DNA of 64,000 nucleotides from a virus (lineage: Duplodnaviria; Caudoviricetes), in IMG/VR virus record IMGVR_UViG_3300036770_004813, positions 1,482-65,481 of that record; one strand, given 5' to 3'. The notes beneath the pieces are model-generated. The model did not search any database and was not told the origin of the DNA. It saw nothing but the letters and a program-made list of their open reading frames with translations. This document shows positions 1 to 55,370 of this stretch, one piece after another. The translations under genes were made by a program, and so were the position numbers. Position 1 is the stretch's first letter. The number at the start of each line of letters is the position of its first letter.

Positions 1-305
1 TAGGGTGGCGGCTTGCGCGGCTGGTGTGCCACGTAGAGGCTTGGGAAGGATTTTGCCTGATGGGAGCTGGGCTGTCAGGTCACAGAGGGGGCCCAGTGCG
101 GTAGAGACCGCCGGCAGCCGTGCGGCTAGCAAAAGCGCTTCGGCGTCAGTCTCGGCAATTATGCGCATGTGGATGGATCGGGGCCCGGATTAGGGTAGGG
201 CACTCCTCTGTTACAGATTGCATTGGACGATGCCTTCAAAACGTGAACTGAGATGCTAAGGTCGGTCCAGGTCTGGAAACGGACCCGTCACCCAGCGAAA
301 ACACT

Positions 306-2637: not shown

Positions 2638-3029
2638 TGGCTATGAAATTTCCTGTTATCACAGTTGCAACGCTTAGGGAAATTATAAATAGTTGGCCTG
2701 ATCACGGTTCAGGCAGTCCTAGCCTAGTGATGCTTGGCAGCACCCACTCTGATCTGGGAGAGGCTCCATTGCCTGCGGTTTCTGCAGCACCGTTGAACCT
2801 AGATGGTTCAGCAGAAGATCACCTGATGATCTTTCCTGCTAAAACGTGCATTGAAGTAAAGGGTGCTAATGATGATACTGATGTTTTAGATGTTGCCTTA
2901 GCAGCTCTTACTTATGGCCCATCATGCACGATAGATAGTTACGACCCATTCGTAGAGAATGCTTTGCGGATTCGTGCAGTAAATGCAATTATGGCAGCTC
3001 GATCCATAAAGCGGAAGTTTAGGCTATGA
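2634..3029 (+). CDS. Hypothetical protein
   Basis: 131-aa ORF overlapping the sigma-factor stop codon. Confidence 0.55.
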   Translation: MMAMKFPVITVATLREIINSWPDHGSGSPSLVMLGSTHSDLGEAPLPAVSAAPLNLDGSAEDHLMIFPAKTCIEVKGANDDTDVLDVALAALTYGPSCTIDSYDPFVENALRIRAVNAIMAARSIKRKFRL

Positions 3030-3076
3030 TCAGCCCAAGTCCAGACAAGGACTCATTCCACCCAGCGACTCCACCT

Positions 3077-3271: not shown

Positions 3272-4374
3272 CAGCCACCATTTCCGCTCCCTTGGCCACT
3301 GTTGCGCCACGGGCTCCAGGCCTTCTCACCGAATCCGAGTGGGAGGAAAAATACGGGCTAAAGCTCTCTGAGCATCCCCAGTGCTTTACCCGCCTTCCAC
3401 GGCAGGCTTACGACGATCTCCCCGGTATCAACGCTTCCCTCACAAAGGAAGTGGTGGACAAGACCGCAGCCCATGCCAAGGCCTTGTTTGATCCCGACCG
3501 TGAAAAGGTCGATAACGCAGCCTTTTTGCAGGGCAACCTTGCTCACTGCCAGACCCTCGAATGGGACTGTTATGAAGAGCGATACGTTGTCCTGCCAGAG
3601 GACGCACCAAAGAGGCCCACAGAGAAGCAGTTGACGCCTCCCAAGCCAGGCCGCAACGGTGAGATAAACACCGCCACCAAGGCGTATGACGCATGGGCGG
3701 AAGCCAAGCAACGCGAGGACTGGTGGTTGGAATTTGAGCAGCAATTCCCCTGTCAGGAGAAAATCTCTGCTACAGATCATGCAATCGGTCTAAAGCTGGC
3801 CAATGCAATCCTGCGGCACCCTGCACTAGGCCCACGGTTTGACCGTACAGACATCAACCGGGCAGGCAATGAGATCACCCTGACGTGGATCGACTCGCTC
3901 TCTGGTGCACGCCTCAAGGCTCGCCTAGACGCCGTGAGGTTTATGGGCGATCACATCTGGATAGGTGATGTGAAGACTGCGCAGGATGCTGGCCCAGGTC
4001 AAGATCATTTTGGCCGTGCTGCTGCAAACTTTGGTTACATCATTCAGGCTGCCTTCTATCGTGATGCGGTTTACTTTTGTAAGAGTGCTATTGCCCGTGC
4101 CCTTGGGCTGGATGAGATCAACCTGCTAGGGCTGCCCATTGTTTACGAATGGATTGCCGTAGAGAAAGCAGCGCCACGGCCTGAATTTATTGGTCGCTAC
4201 CTGCTCACTGAAGAGCAAGAAACGCTAGGCCGTCAGCTTGCACGGAAGGCCATTGATGCCATCGTTCAGGCGCAAGTGACCGGCTACTGGCCCGGTTATG
4301 ACACCGCAGCAACACCGCTGCAGATCCCTGGTTATGCCTATCAGAAGATGCTCCGCCAACTGGAGGAGACATGA
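3268..4374 (+). CDS. RecE/exonuclease VIII-like PD-(D/E)XK nuclease (DUF3799-like)
   Basis: GINAS, GNLAHC, E-ITLTW, KARLD...GDVKT, YIIQAAFY, WPGY motifs; ATG 3268 coupled to upstream stop. Confidence 0.85.
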   Translation: MTATISAPLATVAPRAPGLLTESEWEEKYGLKLSEHPQCFTRLPRQAYDDLPGINASLTKEVVDKTAAHAKALFDPDREKVDNAAFLQGNLAHCQTLEWDCYEERYVVLPEDAPKRPTEKQLTPPKPGRNGEINTATKAYDAWAEAKQREDWWLEFEQQFPCQEKISATDHAIGLKLANAILRHPALGPRFDRTDINRAGNEITLTWIDSLSGARLKARLDAVRFMGDHIWIGDVKTAQDAGPGQDHFGRAAANFGYIIQAAFYRDAVYFCKSAIARALGLDEINLLGLPIVYEWIAVEKAAPRPEFIGRYLLTEEQETLGRQLARKAIDAIVQAQVTGYWPGYDTAATPLQIPGYAYQKMLRQLEET

Positions 4375-4590: not shown

Positions 4591-4604
4591 TTTCTGGAGG
4601 TTTT

Positions 4605-5051
4605 ATGGCAACGGATGAGCAGTGGCGCCTCGTTGAATGGGATCAGGATGCGACAAGCTCTTGCATTCTGGAGCTTCGCGGCAGGGTCGAAGCGTTGGAG
4701 GCGAACATGAACGGCATCGCCTGGGCATTTGATCAACATGCCGCTAAGTGGCAACAGGATGCGGAATCTGAAAACCTGCGGCAGCAGGATGAGGATGTGG
4801 AGCGGGTCGCCAACTTCAAACCAACTCCCAATGATCTCGATCTCCAAATTAGGAGTTCAGCCCCTGCTGTTGGGCTGGTGGAGATGCTTGCAGATGTTTG
4901 GGTTGAAGGCAAGCCCTTGCGTCCTACCGCCCGTCGCGCAGCTATTCGCAAGGTGGCGAAGTGGTTGGAGCAGCAGCAGGAAGTGCCGATTGGAAGCACC
5001 GCCAGCGCCGACTACTTTGCCGCCATGCTGCGCGAGGAGGCCGACCAATGA
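4605..5051 (+). CDS. Hypothetical mosaic protein
   Basis: GGAGG RBS; ATGA-coupled to next ORF. Confidence 0.65.
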   Translation: MATDEQWRLVEWDQDATSSCILELRGRVEALEANMNGIAWAFDQHAAKWQQDAESENLRQQDEDVERVANFKPTPNDLDLQIRSSAPAVGLVEMLADVWVEGKPLRPTARRAAIRKVAKWLEQQQEVPIGSTASADYFAAMLREEADQ

Positions 5052-5197
5052 CCGATCGCATCTTCACAGCATCGCTCATCGCGCTTTTTGCCTTTGCTGC
5101 AGTGATCCTATGGGCCATGTTTCATACTGCCGCTGATTGCCACAGCACTGGCGGCACTGTCGTTCGTGGCATGTTCTGGCTGGAGTGCATTCGATGA
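5048..5197 (+). CDS. Small membrane protein
   Basis: MTDRIFTASLIALFAFAAVILWAMF; GAGG RBS; ATGA overlap. Confidence 0.55.
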   Translation: MTDRIFTASLIALFAFAAVILWAMFHTAADCHSTGGTVVRGMFWLECIR

Positions 5198-5297
5198 CAG
5201 ACCCCACAGCCTGCGCAAATAGCCAACTTTTTGCAGAAACAGTAAAAGTAATCGCATGGGCAGTCGTTGTTTGTTTCCTTGTTTGGAGACTTGCAAA

Positions 5298-5618
5298 ATG
5301 ATCACCGAAACCCACTACGAATGGGAGCTACAGCAGGAAGTGCCGATCGCGGCCACCCTATGGGACATCATTCCGAAACAAGCTGCGGAAGGAGGCCAAC
5401 CGATGAGCACCCTCTCCCCCGCCGATCAAATTATGATCGCCGTCGATCATGTCTACCAAGCCCACGGAGATGATCCCCCGACCCGTGCCGTAGCCGCTGC
5501 TGTCCTTGCGGCTGCAGCGGATCAGGTGGTGCCAGTTGATCGCCGTAGCCGTAGGCAATGCAATATCCGCTCCGGCTTCCTCGCCATCGCCGCCGAGCTG
5601 GGGGGGCAGCAACCATGA
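5298..5618 (+). CDS. Hypothetical protein (possible internal start at 5403)
   Basis: GGAG upstream of 5298, GGAGG upstream of 5403; ATGA overlap at the end. Confidence 0.55.
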   Translation: MITETHYEWELQQEVPIAATLWDIIPKQAAEGGQPMSTLSPADQIMIAVDHVYQAHGDDPPTRAVAAAVLAAAADQVVPVDRRSRRQCNIRSGFLAIAAELGGQQP

Positions 5619-5842
5619 CCGCTGCACCGCCTCCCGCTGATCGCTTCCGCCTTGGTGACATTTGGCGTTCTCCGAGAGGGAAGAATTGGAAGGTCGAAAA
5701 GATCCACCACGTAAAAGGTGCGTTTCTGCGGGCCATGCACAACCGCCACACAACTCAATGGCGCGATGAATGGGCAACCGGCGCTGACATGCTCAGCGCC
5801 TGGGAACGCACTTATTCGGGTTCACAGGAGCTAACACCATGA
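5615..5842 (+). CDS. Hypothetical protein
   Basis: ATGA-coupled on both sides. Confidence 0.55.
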   Translation: MTAAPPPADRFRLGDIWRSPRGKNWKVEKIHHVKGAFLRAMHNRHTTQWRDEWATGADMLSAWERTYSGSQELTP

Positions 5843-5967
5843 CCCCCCTCCACCTACAACACGAACTGGACCGTCGCCTGTCAAAAGCAAAGACAACAGA
5901 GGAGAGGGTCAAGGCCCTGGAATTTATCCTGCGACTTGCACTGAAAGAACTGGAGGCGAAACCATGA
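5839..5967 (+). CDS. Small hypothetical protein (42 aa, MTPLHLQHELDRRL...)
   Basis: Read by hand; CAGGAG RBS; ATGA overlaps on both sides. Confidence 0.5.
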   Translation: MTPLHLQHELDRRLSKAKTTEERVKALEFILRLALKELEAKP

Positions 5968-7022: not shown

Positions 7023-7027
7023 ACTAA
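6650..7027 (+). CDS. Second modular-family protein (ATA 6650 or ATG 6665 start)
   Basis: WGRPAIKPVPVAERLPGVEDC...WLPHHALPVPTSQE. Confidence 0.65.
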   Translation: MTNPKMPTEDDMNDLADDLLGIVLPEGSGARLITRALELWGRPAIKPVPVAERLPGVEDCFPGDCGQRSYKCWAQQYHTDSNGEPLQTVAEAWDLVDYRLLARCRRWYYAWLPHHALPVPTSQED

Positions 7028-8223
7028 TCCAACCCCTGTAACCCCGCCACCTTCTCCAACAACTTCGGCTGATCCAACCGTCTGCCATAGGTGCTCAGAT
7101 GCACAGCAGGGCTATGACCCATCAGCTCGGCACATTCCCGCACCGATAAGCCCATCTCAATTCCGAGCCGTAGTGCAAAGGCATGGCGCAGGCCGTAGGG
7201 CACCAGCTCCGCCCTGAGCTTGCCCGTTGCATCCTTCTGGCCTTTCAGCCGTGCCAGTTGCTTCGCCAGGATCTCCCCAGGCGATTCAGCACCAACCACC
7301 GCTGCAGGCAACCCATATTCCTGCCACCGCAACAGCAGCCCATGGCAATCAGACGGCCATCCCCTAGGCGGCACTGCTGGCACCTGTCTACGGCCCACGC
7401 TGCCCCTTGAGCTGCGCTTCTCTCGTTGCACCGTGACCACCAGCAACCGGCCCTGCTGTGCAACCTGGAGGCCCTGCAGTTCAGCAGGCCGCAGGCCGAA
7501 CACAATCAAGCAATCCCAGGCCACTAGATCAGCAGCGGTGAGCCTGCTCCTGCTGATCCGCTCGCGCAGTTCCTCAATCTCCTCATCGGTGAAGGCCATC
7601 ACACCTTCAGGATGTGCAGCGGCCCTGCCATTCCCGCGCAGGGGAGCCAACCCATCGGGCCATGGCCAGCCAGCTTCTTTCCATAGCCTGCGGAAACGAT
7701 CGTGGGCCATCTGCCGTGCCCTGCTATTTGGCTCCCACTGCCGCAACGTGGTTGTCAGGAGCGTCAAGTCATCAGGCCAGGTCTGTTTGCCTGCCACCTT
7801 CTCCAGAGCCTTCAGATAGGGCAGATAGGTGCGCTCCCAGGTGCGCTCGCTGATCCGCTCACCAACAACAGCAAACCGCAGGTTCTCCCTCGCCCTCGCC
7901 AGCACCGCAGGAGACAACCGACCCGGATCCTCTGCTGAGGGTGCCAACGGATCAGGCCATTGCCAAGAGCCAGCTATCACGGCATCAAAGATCAGGCACG
8001 CCTCGGCCAGTGCTGCCGCTGCCGTGGATGGCCCTGGAGGGGTGCTGAGCAGCAGTGCCCTTTGAGCCGGTGCCCCCTTGCCCTCCCCAGGCCTTGGTGG
8101 CAGCTCAGATGAGAGGAGTTGCAGCCGATCACGCAATAGCCGCAGGAACCACCCAGGCCGCCCCTGGCGATGCCTCTTGAACTGCCTTGATAGGTCCGCT
8201 AACCAGTCCTGTCTTTTCGCCAT
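7024..8223 (-). CDS. int: Tyrosine recombinase / phage integrase
   Basis: FGLRPAEL (Arg), YGLRHAFA (H/Y-x-x-R box), MGHSPAVHLSTY (His, Tyr); adjacent tRNA-derived att core. Confidence 0.93.
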   Translation of the reverse strand: MAKRQDWLADLSRQFKRHRQGRPGWFLRLLRDRLQLLSSELPPRPGEGKGAPAQRALLLSTPPGPSTAAAALAEACLIFDAVIAGSWQWPDPLAPSAEDPGRLSPAVLARARENLRFAVVGERISERTWERTYLPYLKALEKVAGKQTWPDDLTLLTTTLRQWEPNSRARQMAHDRFRRLWKEAGWPWPDGLAPLRGNGRAAAHPEGVMAFTDEEIEELRERISRSRLTAADLVAWDCLIVFGLRPAELQGLQVAQQGRLLVVTVQREKRSSRGSVGRRQVPAVPPRGWPSDCHGLLLRWQEYGLPAAVVGAESPGEILAKQLARLKGQKDATGKLRAELVPYGLRHAFALRLGIEMGLSVRECAELMGHSPAVHLSTYGRRLDQPKLLEKVAGLQGLD

Positions 8224-35458: not shown

Positions 35459-35521
35459 GCGCAACGGCAGGCGCTACTATTTGGATATGGAGGCAAGACC
35501 TTCAACCCACCCAGCGATCCC
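35459..35521 (+). promoter_or_regulatory. Cassette header 1 (promoter, 5' hairpin, CACCCAGCGA)
   Basis: CGCAACGGCAGGCGCTACTAT...GGAGG-CAAGA-CCTTC...CACCCAGCGA-ATG. Confidence 0.75.
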
Positions 35522-36456: not shown

Positions 36457-36512
36457 CCCCCACGGCCCGCCGGGAGCCTATCCCGGCAATCCATCCCACT
36501 GCACCACACGCC

Positions 36513-36764
36513 ATGACCGATCCTTTTCTCTCCAATGTCACCCCGCTTGTCCAGTTTGGTGAGCAATCAATGCAATTTCCGCCACACCCTTTGCCGCCAG
36601 ATCAAATTACGCTTCCTGTTGTTCAGGCTATCAAGGCTTCCATACCTTCCGGTCTAAAGCCCGGATGGCATACAGCAACAATCACTTTCAAGCTAAACGA
36701 AGAGGGAGGCCTAACGCAAATTGATGAGTACAAAGTTTCCAGCTTTGGTAATGACAAGCCATGA
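36513..36764 (+). CDS. Hypothetical protein
   Basis: C-rich leader before ATG 36513. Confidence 0.5.
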   Translation: MTDPFLSNVTPLVQFGEQSMQFPPHPLPPDQITLPVVQAIKASIPSGLKPGWHTATITFKLNEEGGLTQIDEYKVSSFGNDKP

Positions 36765-36921
36765 TCCACCCCTACGAAATCCACCTGCAAGCCCCCTCCG
36801 GCCAGCGCCGCACCCTGCACCTGCAGGCCCAGTCCCCAACCCATGCCATGGCGTCAGCAATCGAGCTGGCAGGCCTCGGTCCCAAGGCAACGGTGATCCG
36901 CTGTTATCGCCTAGGGGACTG

Positions 36922-37224
36922 GTGAGCGATCCCACCAACGCCGAACGCTCCCGCCGCTGGCGTGCCAGGAAGGCCGGAAAGATCCCACCAGCAGAGCGGT
37001 TGATCTGCTCAGCCTGCGGCAAGGGTCGCAGCGGACGCTATGGGGAAATCTGCCGCCGTTGCTGGGAGAGGGTCACGCCAGAAGGGAGGGCAGCAAAGGC
37101 TAAGAGGGTGGCGAAGACTAGGGGAAAACATGCCGACGCCGCCGATCCCTTTGCTCTTCTATCGGAAGCAGAGGCGAGAGCGCAAATCAAAGCAAACGCA
37201 AAAAAATGGCGTGACAGATTGTGA
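36922..37224 (+). CDS. Basic Zn-ribbon protein
   Basis: DPTNAERSRRWRAR...CSACG...CRRCW. Confidence 0.6.
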   Translation: MSDPTNAERSRRWRARKAGKIPPAERLICSACGKGRSGRYGEICRRCWERVTPEGRAAKAKRVAKTRGKHADAADPFALLSEAEARAQIKANAKKWRDRL

Positions 37225-37249
37225 ACAGGCCCGCCGGATGCACGGCAAC

Positions 37250-37312
37250 CGCAACGGTAGGCGCTACATTATGTGCATCGGAGGGGAGGCCCTCCACCAC
37301 CCACGACAGACA
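37250..37312 (+). promoter_or_regulatory. Cassette header 2
   Basis: CGCAACGGTAGGCGCTACATT...GGAGGG-GAGG-CCCTCC...CACCCACGA. Confidence 0.7.
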
Positions 37313-37513
37313 ATGACCCTTCCTCTCCTGGCAATGCTTCCCTCCAGCCCCACCAACATGGCGGTGCGCTGCCAGTGGCATTGCATCGCTTTAGTTGGGT
37401 CCGACATGGAGGGTTACAGGCACTGGGACGGCAATTTGGTCCGCTGGATGGCCCATCCTCAATTTGATATGGCGGAGTTCAACCGCCTCTGTCGGCACTA
37501 CAAGCTCGACTGA
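37313..37513 (+). CDS. Hypothetical protein
   Basis: Between cassette header and terminator. Confidence 0.65.
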   Translation: MTLPLLAMLPSSPTNMAVRCQWHCIALVGSDMEGYRHWDGNLVRWMAHPQFDMAEFNRLCRHYKLD

Positions 37514-37524
37514 GCATCACCACC

Positions 37525-37548
37525 GCCCCGGCCACCCGGGGCTTTTTT
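37525..37548 (+). terminator. Rho-independent terminator
   Basis: GCCCCGG-CCAC-CCGGGGC-TTTTTT. Confidence 0.85.
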
Positions 37549-37566
37549 CATGCCCTACTCTCAGCA

Positions 37567-37650
37567 AGCCCGGTCGGCCCATCATCCGCAAGGGGGGCGC
37601 GGTGGTTGCTTTCGTTGGGGGCAGCCTGAAACCGTACCGAAGGCCGGGTT
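37567..37650 (+). ncRNA. Candidate multi-stem structured RNA (~84 nt)
   Basis: Closing stem AGCCCGGTC/GGCCGGGTT, GCAA-tetraloop hairpin, GCGGT/ACCGT and GGTTGCTTT/GGGGCAGCC stems; G-U pairs favour the + strand. Confidence 0.55.
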
Positions 37651-37704
37651 AAACTAACCCCAACACCCTCCAAGCCTCTCAGCGATGCTCAAACAGGAGG
37701 GTCA

Positions 37705-37833
37705 CTATTTAGCAGGCTTTTTTGCCATCTTCTTTCCAGCCTTGGCAGGAGCCTTAGCCCCACCCTTGGCGGGCTTCATCAGGAAGGCGGGGAGCTTGCC
37801 CTTTTTGTCGCCTTTGCCTTTTTCGTAGGACAT
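37705..37833 (-). CDS. 42-aa Lys/Ala/Pro-rich histone-H1-like peptide
   Basis: MSYEKGKGDKKGKLPAFLMKPAKGGAKAPAKAGKKMAKKPAK; own GGGAAAACT motif at 37858-37866. Confidence 0.6.
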   Translation of the reverse strand: MSYEKGKGDKKGKLPAFLMKPAKGGAKAPAKAGKKMAKKPAK

Positions 37834-37916
37834 GCCCGTTTGGTGAGGTTCTGGTTTAGTTTTCCCTGTCCGGCGGTGGTGACGACTTATTAACGCTCTT
37901 GCGCTGCCTTGCCAGG

Positions 37917-37981
37917 CGCAACGCTAGGCGCTACAATGAAAGGACAGCAGGGGGAACTCTGCTCACACCCAGCGACTTCAA
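37917..37981 (+). promoter_or_regulatory. Cassette header 3
   Basis: CGCAACGCTAGGCGCTACAAT...GCAGGG-GGAA-CTCTGC...CACCCAGCGA. Confidence 0.8.
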
Positions 37982-38242
37982 ATGACCGTCATGACTACCA
38001 CGCTTCCCGAAACGCTGCTTGATATGGGCCCTTGGGGCGTCTGCATTTTTGCGACTCCTCAAGCTGCCACCGCAATGGCAGCCGAACTTGGATGGGATAC
38101 TGGCGAGTTGGATCGCCTGCATTTAAATCCATCTGGTGATGCCTACTTGTTCCATGAAACTCAGGGAGGTCGCACTCATACTCAGGTGATTCGTGTCAAA
38201 CCTGGAACCGCCGATGGCGAATTTATCGCCAGTGACGACTAA
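37982..38242 (+). CDS. Hypothetical protein
   Basis: Header upstream; TTCCCCGC/GCGGGGAA hairpin downstream. Confidence 0.7.
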   Translation: MTVMTTTLPETLLDMGPWGVCIFATPQAATAMAAELGWDTGELDRLHLNPSGDAYLFHETQGGRTHTQVIRVKPGTADGEFIASDD

Positions 38243-38302
38243 ACACGCTAGTGTTGAATTTCCCCGCAAAGGCGGGGAAGACTTTTCCTTAACAGTTTGT
38301 GG

Positions 38303-39070
38303 TTAGTCTTTGCCGCCCGACTTTTTCCGTTTGCCTGGCCTCAGCAACGTTCTAACTGCTTGCCGACGCACGGTGGTTTTTAAGGCCTTTTCAACTTTTT
38401 GATCAAGACCTCCAAAGGCACTTATGCCCTCAAGCCTTACCTTAATCTTTTTAGAGGGCACGTCAAAAAATACTTTTGATGTTGAGGCCAGTGATTTGAT
38501 GCGCCCTGCAGTCCCCTTGCTTATGTCATCGCCCTTAAAGATATAGTTCTTGCCGCTGCCTCTATTTGGTGCAATTCCTATTCTCTCCGATTGATTGTTA
38601 AAGTATATCCTGTCCATGCCGTTCTTTTGCCAGCGGCTACCACCAGCGTTTTCCATCATTTTGGCAGTTAGCTTAGGAGAAAATCGCCCTGCCTGCTTTG
38701 GGAGAGATTTAGCTTTGGCGCCAATTTGATAATCCCATCCGTCTTTCTTTCTGATTGCCCGACCCTCTTGCGTTACGGGAGATGTGGCCATGGATTTCTT
38801 GCCCCCTTTGCCCATTATCCCAGCCCTTCCGCCTGAGATGTTCGCCACCTGCCTAGCCCTCAACTTCCCGCTAGCTGTCTTGAGCCTCCCACCTCTGACC
38901 GTGGCGCCATCTCCCCCCACGCTGGTGATCTTGCCGCTGTTATCTCGCGTCAGGCGGTTAGGCCCCTTCGCCACACGCTTAGCCGCTGGCCTCTTGCTGC
39001 CCCCTCCACCAGTCGAGGCAAAGCGCCCGTTTGCGTCACGCTTATAGGTGCGCCCCGCCTTGCCAGCCAT
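38303..39070 (-). CDS. Highly basic late protein A (shared ~90-aa N-terminus with RDxxGRF)
   Basis: MAGKAGRTYKRDANGRFAST...; late motif 39092-39100. Confidence 0.75.
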   Translation of the reverse strand: MAGKAGRTYKRDANGRFASTGGGGSKRPAAKRVAKGPNRLTRDNSGKITSVGGDGATVRGGRLKTASGKLRARQVANISGGRAGIMGKGGKKSMATSPVTQEGRAIRKKDGWDYQIGAKAKSLPKQAGRFSPKLTAKMMENAGGSRWQKNGMDRIYFNNQSERIGIAPNRGSGKNYIFKGDDISKGTAGRIKSLASTSKVFFDVPSKKIKVRLEGISAFGGLDQKVEKALKTTVRRQAVRTLLRPGKRKKSGGKD

Positions 39071-40267: not shown

Positions 40268-40331
40268 CGCAACGCTAGGCGCTACAGTATGGAGACAGCA
40301 GGGGGAACCCTGCGTACACCCAGCGAATCCC
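40268..40331 (+). promoter_or_regulatory. Cassette header 4
   Basis: CGCAACGCTAGGCGCTACAGT...GCAGGG-GGAA-CCCTGC...CACCCAGCGA. Confidence 0.8.
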
Positions 40332-43325: not shown

Positions 43326-44846
43326 TTATTGCTCTTCGTCGTCTATCGGATCCTCTTCTACCTGATCCTCTTCATCATCCCCTGCCAGATCATTAGGGCC
43401 AGGAACGGGAGGATTCAGCAAGGCATTCTGCTTCTCATCCTCCTCCGCGAGTTGAGCCGCTTCATCCTCACCGTTGATACCAGGCCGCAGCATCCCGCGC
43501 CTCTGAGCCAGGTTGGTCACGGTTTCACGCATCAGGAGGCCCTTGTCATAGAGGGTGCCTGCCAGCGTCAACAGGGCATCATCCACCGGCTTATCGGTGA
43601 TGCCAGGCAACAGGTCGATCCCTGCCCCAACCTCTGGCAGGTCCCCGGTGAAGGTGCCCCATAGATCAAAGAGCGATTGCCAGCAGGAGCTTTTGGCTTC
43701 TGCCAAGCTGGTGATGCTCGCCTGAAGTTGTGCGCTTTCTAGCTCAGCCTGTGTTGCAGTGCGCTGCCCTGAGCCTGAACTAAACAAAAAGCTAAGGGTG
43801 CTACGGTCAATTAACTTCTCAATTTCTGCAAGATGTTGCAGGTGTTTGTCTAGGCTAGATCCTGTAGGTTCAGCAAAGGTAAGGCTACCGTTCGGATCCT
43901 TGATTTCAACTAGGCTATTCGGCCCCAGTGTTAGCGGTGTGCCCTCCACCCTGCCGGCATCTTTGAGCACCGTCACGGGCAATGCGCAGCGGTGGAGCAG
44001 CTCTTTCAAGTCGCTGTATTCCCTGAACCAATCAAGGGTCAGGTTCGCCAGGCTGAGCAGCATTGGAGCGCCAGAGCCGAATCCATCTCGTGGTGGGCCA
44101 TACCAAATGACAGGCGGATATTCCAGCTCCCTGCCGCCTGCACCGATGAACCTATCCTCGTCCAGAACCTCAATCGTTCCCTCGCCGTTATCTTTGCTTT
44201 TGTCGCCACCATGGATCTTAATTAGCTGCCAGGTGCCGCCGCGCATGACGCGATAGCGCGGCTCTAGCTTGATGCCAAAATCATCATCATCTACCTCATG
44301 CCATTCGAGCACGGTAACAGCGATCGGCACATGCTTACGCCCAATCTTTTTTAGCTTCCAGTTCAGGACATTGCTGCGCTCGGCAATACTGAAGACAGGC
44401 CGCCTGCCCTGGGCAATCTCAGCAGCCCTGGATTCTGCTGTGCCCTGCGGCATGTCGCACATCAGGAGGCAACCGCCATCCCTCAGCACCAGGCTATCGG
44501 CCACCATGCCCCAGGCCTTCAGAGAGTCGCCCTCACCATTGATGTCAGACTGCGCTTCGATCAGGCTCTGCTGCACCCCGCGCAGTTCATAACGGCTGAG
44601 CACACCAGCAAAAGCCGTGATGCCATCCCTGAAGAATGACGGATAGGAAGAGCGTCTGACCCTTCCCTCATAAGCCTGCTCTGGCTCCCCTTGTTCTTTC
44701 GGAAGATGCCTCTTTTTTGCTTCGCCCCTCAGTAGATCCCAGCAATCTGCAACCAGTTCTAATTCTGTGCGAACCTCAGCCAGCTTCGGGTGATGAAAAC
44801 TAGGTAGTTTCCCGTTCGTTGTCGAATGGCTGATCTGCTGCCGCAC
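43326..44846 (-). CDS. Portal protein (DUF4055-like)
   Basis: HLPKEQGEP...Y..R, P.LL.LANL...Y.D...LH, TATQA; downstream of terL. Confidence 0.85.
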   Translation of the reverse strand: MRQQISHSTTNGKLPSFHHPKLAEVRTELELVADCWDLLRGEAKKRHLPKEQGEPEQAYEGRVRRSSYPSFFRDGITAFAGVLSRYELRGVQQSLIEAQSDINGEGDSLKAWGMVADSLVLRDGGCLLMCDMPQGTAESRAAEIAQGRRPVFSIAERSNVLNWKLKKIGRKHVPIAVTVLEWHEVDDDDFGIKLEPRYRVMRGGTWQLIKIHGGDKSKDNGEGTIEVLDEDRFIGAGGRELEYPPVIWYGPPRDGFGSGAPMLLSLANLTLDWFREYSDLKELLHRCALPVTVLKDAGRVEGTPLTLGPNSLVEIKDPNGSLTFAEPTGSSLDKHLQHLAEIEKLIDRSTLSFLFSSGSGQRTATQAELESAQLQASITSLAEAKSSCWQSLFDLWGTFTGDLPEVGAGIDLLPGITDKPVDDALLTLAGTLYDKGLLMRETVTNLAQRRGMLRPGINGEDEAAQLAEEDEKQNALLNPPVPGPNDLAGDDEEDQVEEDPIDDEEQ

Positions 44847-45762
44847 CGCTCACTTTTTTATCTTCTGTTTGAGTTTTCCCCCTCTGAACAAAAATCCCGA
44901 GCTGTTGGATGATTTCCACAGGGTTGGACGTTGCCTTAGGCTGCCGTGTCCCCCTCTTTCTTGCCCCTGAAGCTGGCACACACAGGCTCAGATCATTTTG
45001 CGTCTGTATCGGCTCGCGGCGAATGATGCTTTGCGCACGGCCTAGGAATTGTTGGTGCGATAGGGAGGCCAGTTTGCGTTTCTTTTTGCCTGTCCATGCC
45101 GCCTTAATCATCTCCTGATCAGCCCATGGCAAGGCCTCCCAGGCACGGTCAGCAATCGTGAGGGCATCCGCCAGCTCATCGAATGTTTCAGCGTCGTCTA
45201 GCGCGTCAGAGTGGGCAGAGCGGTAAGCATCAGGATCTAGCTGGGAGGTGGTCTGCTGTGCCTGAAGGATGGCCTCGATGTCTTCTGGCTTGAGGCCCGT
45301 AGCTTGCTCCACTGCTGCCATGGTGGCCCCTGCTGCTGCCATCCGGCGCACGGTGGGGGCAGTGTCGCGCCAGAGATCAGGGAACCGCACACCAGAGCTG
45401 TGGCCCCGATCCCTTAGCCATTGGTGCATGGCGCCCTGGATGCACGGGACCACATAGGTGCTCAGCCTGAAGGGTTTGCCCGTGTCTGGGTTGCTCAGTG
45501 TGGGGTCATACCTTCTGCAACCCTTGAGGAGGCCCTGGGCTGCCACCAAATACAGATCCTCGAAGGGCAACTTAGTGCGAAACGCCAAACGGCTTGCCAT
45601 TGCTGCCGCCAATTTCAGATTCTCTGCTGCAAGCTGTTCAGACCACTCTGTAGGAGGTGGAAACGATCCAAGTTTGCTGGCCTCTATGTCCACATCAGGA
45701 CACGGGCGCACCTTGGTCGAGCGCGCTGATCGTGGGCGACCCTTGGCAGGTTTCGTCGTCAC
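44800..45762 (-). CDS. Second sigma factor, SigB/SigF-like, with degenerate region 4
   Basis: ENLKLA..MA, EDLYLVAAQGLLKGCRRYDP, LSTYVVPCIQGAMHQWLRD. Confidence 0.85.
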   Translation of the reverse strand: MTTKPAKGRPRSARSTKVRPCPDVDIEASKLGSFPPPTEWSEQLAAENLKLAAAMASRLAFRTKLPFEDLYLVAAQGLLKGCRRYDPTLSNPDTGKPFRLSTYVVPCIQGAMHQWLRDRGHSSGVRFPDLWRDTAPTVRRMAAAGATMAAVEQATGLKPEDIEAILQAQQTTSQLDPDAYRSAHSDALDDAETFDELADALTIADRAWEALPWADQEMIKAAWTGKKKRKLASLSHQQFLGRAQSIIRREPIQTQNDLSLCVPASGARKRGTRQPKATSNPVEIIQQLGIFVQRGKTQTEDKKVSGAAADQPFDNERETT

Positions 45763-55303: not shown

Positions 55304-55370
55304 GGGTCGCTGGGTGATGAACTCCGCAATCCTACCCTAACTGGTCCAGACTTGGGCAAGTCTTAACAAT

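Follow-up and report, generated by a model that had tools for sequence, protein, structure and literature searches.

Heteroimmunity between phages P1 and P7 rests on matched changes in the C4 RNA and its target, C4 being encoded in the same operon as that target and matured by RNase P. The CI RNA of phage P4, which is small and processed, confers immunity by pairing with transcripts of the phage and causing premature transcription termination at sites inside the leader, while pseudo-ToxI of phage PhiTE is an RNA mimic directed against an RNA-dependent defence. To our knowledge, phage regulatory RNAs have been described from a handful of enterobacterial model phages. RNA anti-CRISPRs (Racrs) are presented as phage RNA mimics against RNA-dependent defence (PMC10651486), and a passage on the ant operon states that full repression of ant needs the C4 antisense RNA, for which a binding site lies in the operon (PMC8198154). 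Here we describe a small structured RNA element of a virus of the class Caudoviricetes (IMG/VR record IMGVR_UViG_3300036770_004813), the short leader sequences to which its apical loop is complementary, and the abiF-motif hairpin that adjoins it. The stretch analysed, referred to below as the window, is 64,000 nucleotides (nt) long and comprises bases 1482–65481 of the 65,481-bp (base pair) record, which has direct terminal repeats and is rated 100% complete.

We consider the element to be probably (at a probability of roughly 0.68) a trans-acting regulatory RNA that pairs through a seed with leader sites of its own phage and works in the manner of P1/P7 C4 (RF01695). Like C4, it would be a short, structured RNA with a loop that pairs where translation of phage genes is initiated, here by a complementarity, in silico only, of 8–10 bp to six leaders at 3–8 nt before the ATG. 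In the related phages L146 and L157 the gene for the RNA immediately precedes that of its best target, just as c4 precedes icd and ant, and between these two phages RNA and target have changed in a matched fashion, as they have between P1 and P7. In contrast to C4, the element is not matched by the C4 model, E values up to 10 included, and has no detectable sequence relation to it, its six or seven target leaders are dispersed on both strands rather than confined to one operon, and the targets are without a Shine–Dalgarno sequence. The element is thus apparently closest in logic to P1/P7 C4, but by model is not a member of the C4 family. It differs from P4 CI, with which it was compared by description only, in having sites that abut start codons.

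A first-pass annotation of the window, made from its sequence, had drawn a multi-stem fold on the plus strand between a terminator and a convergent gene, and both the sequence and 44 distinct homologues bear this out (Table 1). These homologues were collected with a 20-nt pattern from the invariant hairpin, which identified 25 viral loci and, with the window, 17 distinct sequences, and with a pattern scan of metagenomes that contributed 65 stretches. Covariance model R1, applied to the viral loci and metagenome stretches, found 56 copies, of which 44 are distinct; it scores 103.3 bits at 37568–37649, the sole copy in the 65.5-kb genome. A MAFFT alignment of the 17 distinct sequences, independent of the model, gives the structure of the first-pass annotation with 30 pairs, 12 of them changed on both sides, and has 97.6% of cells paired compared with 86.9 ± 0.9% in shuffles and at most 58% in a slid control in which the 3' partners were moved by 1–3 columns. 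The alignment of all 44 distinct sequences, which was fitted to R1, has 98.0% of cells paired compared with 86.0% in shuffles and at most 56% in slid controls, and compensatory changes are abundant, affecting 19 of the 30 pairs. Conserved G-U and U-G pairs assign the RNA to the plus strand. Three parts of the scaffold hardly vary, namely GGUCG, the CCCAUCAUCCGYAAGGGGGG of hairpin 2 and the GUAYCGAAGGCC of the junction. In hairpin 3 the upper stem changes freely but with compensation, and the apical segment is variable in sequence. Folding of the window sequence by itself was less informative: the minimum free energy of 37567–37665 is −41.1 kcal/mol (z −0.64, with 53 of 200 shuffles equally stable) and the minus strand folds more weakly, so that the single-sequence energy, not above shuffles on either strand, is no evidence either way.

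The element remains constant among relatives while its neighbours vary from a transfer RNA (tRNA) gene to RtcB, the abiF hairpin, convergent terminators or the 5' untranslated region of a gene. This bears on the explanation that it has no targets in trans and works only in cis, as a 3' element of the operon before it or as a 5' signal in the processing of downstream tRNAs or of the abiF hairpin. It follows a terminator not only in the window but in six or more relatives and precedes a tRNA gene in three, which agrees with such a role, but neighbours that differ so widely do not, and an apex that tracks leader sites elsewhere in the genome would be left unexplained; we regard a purely cis-acting element as very improbable. 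The three relatives with tRNA genes, L143, L162 and L165 (the G003 and G005 phages), are AT-richer and have an extended −10-like box (TGATAAAAT or TGATACAAT) at the 5' end of the RNA, which is followed by a hairpin and then the tRNA gene, the tRNA model matching those genes only. A −10-like box at the 5' end with a tRNA after the element in three phages fits a stand-alone RNA gene.

The proposed targets in the window are copies of the 10-mer CACCCAGCGA, which occurs exactly six times, five on the plus strand and one on the minus strand, each copy ending 3–8 nt before an ATG; among 10-mers only the GGGAAAACT family is more frequent. Within the loop, UCGUUGGG pairs over 8 bp (one G-U) with CCCAGCGA, and pairing with CCCAGCGA(AA) extends to 10 bp at site 289 and to 9 bp at site 40317, with duplex energies between apex and leader of −14 to −16 kcal/mol. 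The claim that six leaders can pair with the apex over 8–10 nt with one G-U is therefore correct. No Shine–Dalgarno sequence is present at the usual distance in any of these leaders. The genes behind them are small (49–130 codons, with one of 408) and matched no Pfam or PHROG family. Three of the sites (35508, 37966 and 40317) and a seventh, variant site, CACCCACGAC, are located behind a box, GCGCTACNNT, and a GGAGG-containing leader hairpin, whereas the other three exact copies are behind a different conserved sequence, AAGTCYRGAC. The latter is partly palindromic and lies at about 250–285, 3020–3055 and 55320–55360 (minus strand) of the window, in leaders without the GCGCTAC box, and is found ahead of the small-RNA gene itself in L146 and L157.

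Within this window alone, an 8-bp match between loop and leader is at chance level, as 27 sites on both strands pair with the motif over at least 8 bp, six of these being its own antisense. The caution in the first-pass annotation that so short a pairing could be chance was thus well placed as far as one genome is concerned, and it is only through the homologues that the pairing appears to rise above chance. Many relatives share promoter–hairpin–leader cassettes; the complete genomes G003 and G005, which are of the tRNA type, have no CACCCANCGA leaders. Loop UCG-U-UGGG is found with leader CCCA-G-CGA in the window, L180 and L025 and with CCCA-A-CG in L152, L192, L211 and L188, and loop UCG-A-UGGG (UCGAUGGG) with CC(C)A-U-CG(A) in L215, L150, L183, L181, L142, L225, L191 and L175. 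The remaining combinations are UUUGUUGG with CCAACAA (L182), CUCGUGGG with CCCACGAG (L236, L185 and L228), GUGGUGG with CCACCGC (L210), UGUUGGGG with CCCCAACA (L193) and UGGGUGG with CCACCCA (L165). Purines (G or A) opposite U, and U opposite A, make a pattern of RNA pairing and not of DNA identity, and 28 of the 29 leaders belonging to phages with UCG-U-UGGG or UCG-A-UGGG loops bind their own loop type better.

Two permutation tests support the correspondence. In the first, leaders were picked by the promoter box only in 15 phages (L190 and L162 were left out, L227 was merged into L152 and L219 into L210), and the summed duplex energy of cognate combinations was −175.8 compared with −146.4 ± 7.6 for permuted loops, none of 20,000 permutations being as low. 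With a broader box, giving 15 loop groups and 61 leaders, the sum was −159.1 compared with −135.0 ± 5.2, again with none of 50,000 permutations as low. The clearest single case is provided by L146 and L157, which are 91–95% identical; over the 380 nt surrounding the element, the differences between them are concentrated at the apex and at the site of the downstream gene. Their apices, GUUGCUGUGAGC and GUUUCUACGGGC, and the sites just upstream of the next ATG, UUCACAGU and UCCGUAGA, form 8 bp of pairing each with their own partner. L215 has the exact layout of the window, including the junction with the abiF hairpin, but has an A-type loop, and its leaders contain U. The proposal of a C4-like short structured RNA acting by pairing between its apical loop and the CACCCAGCGA leaders accordingly draws support from the conservation of the fold and from the co-variation of loop and site, the latter seen in the permutation tests and the double swap between L146 and L157, with some exceptions and a weak blind test that are considered below.

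Co-variation of this kind might also arise if the shared sequence were a DNA site, such as an operator or recombination core, placed in inverted orientation inside the RNA gene, with all sites changing together to fit one protein. The exact 10-mer is two bases longer than the pairing, a serine recombinase is encoded within 1–3 kb of the element in some relatives, and in the UCGAUGGG phages the complement of the loop is identical to the leader sites as DNA. However, the leaders of the window, L180 and L025 all have G where the loop complement has A, which is a G-U pair in RNA but a mismatch for DNA. Moreover, the inverted copy is always exactly at the apex of a covarying RNA hairpin, and the sites are on the coding strand throughout, always with the leader hairpin on one side and the ATG on the other. 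We therefore think a DNA site highly improbable.

Several results weigh against a pairing function. Owing to the kinship of the phages, the permutation counts make the data look more independent than they are, and just 27 of the 61 leaders have at least seven contiguous pairs with their own loop, compared with 216 of 854 non-cognate combinations. L156 has a U-type loop yet the leader CCCAUCAG; one U loop group holds a CCAUCGA leader and another holds two CCCAUCGC leaders. A blind test that took every ATG opening an open reading frame (ORF) was weak, with 48 cognate matches compared with 34.6 ± 8.7 and a count as high in 1,480 of 20,000 permutations. Cognate pairing was favoured in five of seven pairs in a nearest-relative contrast that included one pair with identical loops and one based on the L190/L162 leaders, judged to be chance matches to the promoter pattern. 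A scan for own-loop sites in two complete genomes of the tRNA type found no repeated target, with one 7-nt site in L165. In the window itself, the variant site CACCCACGAC needs one bulged base to pair with the loop (−9.6 kcal/mol), which is no better than with a foreign loop, the apex is predicted to be mostly paired in the isolated fold via U-G wobbles (opening it costs 4.8 kcal/mol), and no recognisable promoter was found for the RNA gene, which follows a terminator.

It is possible, though unlikely in our estimation, that the element is a real structured RNA acting via its invariant scaffold, by protein binding, as a decoy for a host factor or in processing and stability, and that the complementarity reflects ancestry together with G-rich loops and C-rich leaders. 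Hairpin 2 and the junction, not the apex, are its most conserved parts; CCACCACCCA is common to all leaders and pairs with any G-run, and the GUGGUGG loop binds almost every leader. The small number of leaders reaching 7 bp and the weak blind test favour this explanation as well. So do the surroundings, as the element adjoins an antitoxin-type RNA, and in L025 the gene for the RNA ligase RtcB, and an arginine-rich zinc-ribbon ORF is nearby in 8 of 17 representative loci. A scaffold function does not, on the other hand, account for the switch at a specific position, from a purine facing U to a U facing A, in all but one of the leaders compared, and the double patch swap between L146 and L157 in near-identical DNA is hard to derive from ancestry or composition. 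Nor was a mimicked host RNA seen, model R1 having found no copy in 150 further genomes from the phylum to which G056 belongs, the one cyanobacterial bin that has the element, with few candidates scored per genome.

If the element is a C4-like regulator, its rigid conserved scaffold (closing stem, bulged GNRA hairpin and junction) would display a variable apical seed, which would pair over 7–10 nt with a C/A-rich site 3–8 nt upstream of the start codon. The site would occupy the position of the absent Shine–Dalgarno sequence, so that pairing would occlude the ribosome landing site, most likely by blocking binding of the 30S subunit. Such sites are present in the leaders of several small genes, behind phage-specific promoters and with a leader hairpin ahead of each, and the predicted outcome is repression of a small set of co-regulated genes, early or moron-like in kind, to which the RNA gene's own operon would belong. 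Feedback is likely, since the RNA gene is downstream of one of the promoter–leader cassettes. Such control might serve either a switch from early to late expression or a prophage-type immunity. Seed and sites would form a matched specificity pair, exchangeable between related phages. We infer that a discrete RNA is made and that its pairing with the targets takes place in the cell, repressing them instead of activating them. An alternative role for the loop as a mimic of 16S ribosomal RNA was dropped because the loop varies between phages.

Table 1. Features of the RNA locus and of the leader sites, in window coordinates
Feature	Position	Strand	Details
Structured small RNA gene	37568–37649	+	Three-way junction, ~82 nt; sequence, consensus fold, covariation
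Closing stem P1	37568–37575 with 37642–37649	+	Read from sequence
Hairpin P2	37577–37598	+	AUCA bulge; GCAA tetraloop at 37588–37591
Long hairpin P3	37599–37635	+	UGAA bulge at 37627–37630
Apical segment UUUCGUUGGGG	37610–37620	+	Proposed seed for leader sites
Invariant junction ACCGAA	37636–37641	+	Part of RNA element
Class A promoter-like box GCGCTACATT and GGAGG-containing leader hairpin	37261–37312	+	Ahead of ATG 37313
Seventh, variant site CACCCACGAC	37298–37307	+	Before ATG 37313
ORF of 66 codons	37313–37513	+	Upstream of RNA gene; read from class A promoter-like box
Intrinsic-terminator-like hairpin and T-run	37525–37548 (hairpin 37525–37542)	+	Between upstream small gene and RNA
16-nt spacer UAAACUAACCCCAACA	37650–37665	+	5' flank of abiF module; blastn break-points against L025
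abiF-motif RNA hairpin (RF03085)	37666–37702	+	52.9 bits (gathering score 37); full length, model positions 1–37
Convergent lysine-rich ORF of 42 codons	37705–37833	−	Conserved in L025 and L215
GGGAAAACT box	37858–37866 (plus coordinates)	−	Upstream of 37705–37833 ORF
Leader site CACCCAGCGA	289–298	+	7 nt before ATG 306 (408-amino-acid ORF); duplex with own loop −16.2 kcal/mol
Leader site CACCCAGCGA	3059–3068	+	8 nt before ATG 3077 (64 codons)
Leader site CACCCAGCGA	35508–35517	+	4 nt before ATG 35522 (130-amino-acid ORF); class A box 35471–35480
Promoter TTGCCA-17-TACAAT	37909–37937	+	Ahead of leader site 37966
Leader site CACCCAGCGA	37966–37975	+	6 nt before ATG 37982 (86-amino-acid ORF)
Leader site CACCCAGCGA	40317–40326	+	5 nt before ATG 40332 (76 codons); class A box 40279–40288
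Leader site CACCCAGCGA	55307–55316	−	3 nt before ATG 55303 (49-codon ORF, hydrophobic stretch)

The element represents a new RNA family, so far found only on phage-type contigs of uncultured, freshwater-type or aquatic origin. It corresponds to no Rfam family at gathering scores across the window or at E values up to 10 in 37400–37900, ARAGORN detected no tRNA or transfer-messenger RNA gene in the window, and blastn of 36500–39000 against 50,697 GenBank phage records returned no match. R1 found no convincing copy in the cultured siphoviruses S-CBS2, PSS2, S-CRES1, S-CRES3 and MinS1; a 19-bit match in MinS1 was rejected as the invariant parts are absent. A pattern scan of species-representative genomes gave four matches, comprising two coding coincidences and two short binned phage-like contigs. 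A second, diverged copy of the RNA was counted in two other phages. This copy has a different apical segment and is located at 3300–3391 and 6727–6818 in L147/L236 and at 1633–1735 in L210/L219; in L210 and L219 the two are in tandem, the second about 40 nt past the first. The terminator context of the window, 'ggggcuuuuucaugcc', recurs in relatives, and the 66-codon ORF ahead of it matched no Pfam or PHROG family. The zinc-ribbon ORF (CxxC...CxxC; 36721–37224, plus strand) is the most constant protein neighbour of the element and lies directly downstream of it in L167; a weak zinc-ribbon match was all that its product gave against the Pfam and PHROG families.

AbiF is the toxin–antitoxin ancestor of Cas13. 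The abiF RNA is characterised in three reports as an antitoxin that binds and blocks the HEPN RNase AbiF (PMC12373285, PMC12737573, PMC13064643), and RCd22, in one of them, as neutralising AbiF in trans by direct binding (PMC12373285). As in RCd22/AbiFr, the phage hairpin next to the element matches RF03085 over its full length, but RCd22 has two hairpins and the phage one. In contrast to the AbiF type III toxin–antitoxin system, the phage has no AbiF gene, the complete genome giving no Abi_2 match at E values up to 1, and the next plus-strand gene after the hairpin is 200 nt away and has its own promoter. The invariant AAGCCUCU...GCUCAAA of the phage hairpin recurs in hairpins that precede Abi_2 genes in the phylum of G056, where Abi_2 genes were present in 16 of 201 sampled genomes and 2 of 12 fetched Abi_2 loci carried an abiF hairpin at the gathering score.

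Solitary abiF hairpins are not peculiar to this phage. The abiF core is present in at least 117 viral contigs, and among 50 other motif-bearing viral records, chosen for length, 47 have no Abi_2 gene at E values up to 0.001, as is the case for 11 of the 13 records that are at least 90% complete. Only two of the clustered ORFs downstream of the hairpin are AbiF-like. In 21 loci (between L002 and L118) an ORF for a calcineurin-like metallophosphoesterase of about 180–210 amino acids starts within 600 nt downstream of the hairpin; in one locus this ORF starts 9 nt before the end of the abiF core match. The simplest reading is that the orphan hairpin is a candidate decoy that would keep a host AbiF RNase silent, which would make it, like pseudo-ToxI and the Racrs, a phage-borne solitary RNA partner of a host defence protein with no protein gene. 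An abiF small RNA in cyanophage S-CREM1 is noted without an assigned role (PMC9964418), and we found no paper proposing a decoy role for abiF hairpins in a literature search that extended to neither the primary AbiF structure paper nor supplements.

The two RNA modules are separable. The stretch 37567–37665 has no match to the abiF model, whose only match starts at 37666, and R1 detected no small-RNA element in 98 other abiF-bearing loci, while in L025 a 420-codon RtcB RNA ligase gene (4598–5860, minus strand; E 2.4e-133) lies exactly between the small-RNA and abiF modules. The junction in the window, at about 37646–37649, is the same in L215. RtcB is missing from the window and L215, and the junction has short ggcc(n)ggg repeats. 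This arrangement also disposes of a second pairing that had been suggested, between GUUGGGG of the loop and CCCCAAC at 37658–37664. The sequence is present, but as part of the flank on the 5' side of the abiF hairpin. This flank is unaltered in L215 despite the changed loop there, and in L025 it is found next to the abiF hairpin, some 1.3 kb away from the element. A CAACA or UAACA flank is common among viral abiF hairpins.

We tentatively raise the possibility, on balance doubtful, that the locus is an all-RNA island of control and counter-defence, in which a programmable seed/site code for immunity or incompatibility over a genome-wide regulon is fused to an AbiF-antitoxin decoy. Were this so, near-identical phages would exchange a seed and its matching sites as a specificity pair without Shine–Dalgarno-led initiation, and solitary AbiF hairpins would be widespread undescribed RNA anti-defence decoys, often with RtcB and metallophosphoesterase genes. 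An AbiF decoy, if real, would extend RNA mimicry as practised by pseudo-ToxI and RNA anti-CRISPRs to another defence family. With its clear structural covariation and with putative targets readable from genome sequence, the family, which has 44 distinct members in uncultured aquatic phages, also lends itself to testing whether RNA controls genes, and perhaps encodes immunity specificity, in a group whose translation starts lack a Shine–Dalgarno sequence; the matched swaps of seed and site could serve as natural 'compensatory mutants'.

The large terminase of the phage is 34–36% identical to those of the cyanobacterial siphoviruses PSS2, S-CBS2, S-CRES1–3 and MinS1, and by this protein such siphoviruses are its closest named kin. 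A sigma-70-family ORF (44800–45762, minus strand; Sigma70_r2, E 1.4e-5) adjoins the large terminase gene, an arrangement also found in PSS2, S-CRES1 and S-CRES3. Based on the terminase kinship and the position of the sigma factor, a cyanobacterial host is a reasonable guess. An integrase-like ORF at 7024–8223 is under the Pfam cut-off. The 42-codon convergent ORF has about 90% nucleotide identity in L025 and is present in L215 too; its lysine-rich product may be a small basic virion or DNA-binding protein. The sequence GGGAAAACT(A) is the commonest 9-mer of the genome, with 19 copies, and has seven copies in the related G003. The copy at 37858–37866 is about 25–30 nt upstream of the start of a minus-strand gene, and GGGAAAACT may be a promoter recognised by the sigma factor that the phage encodes.

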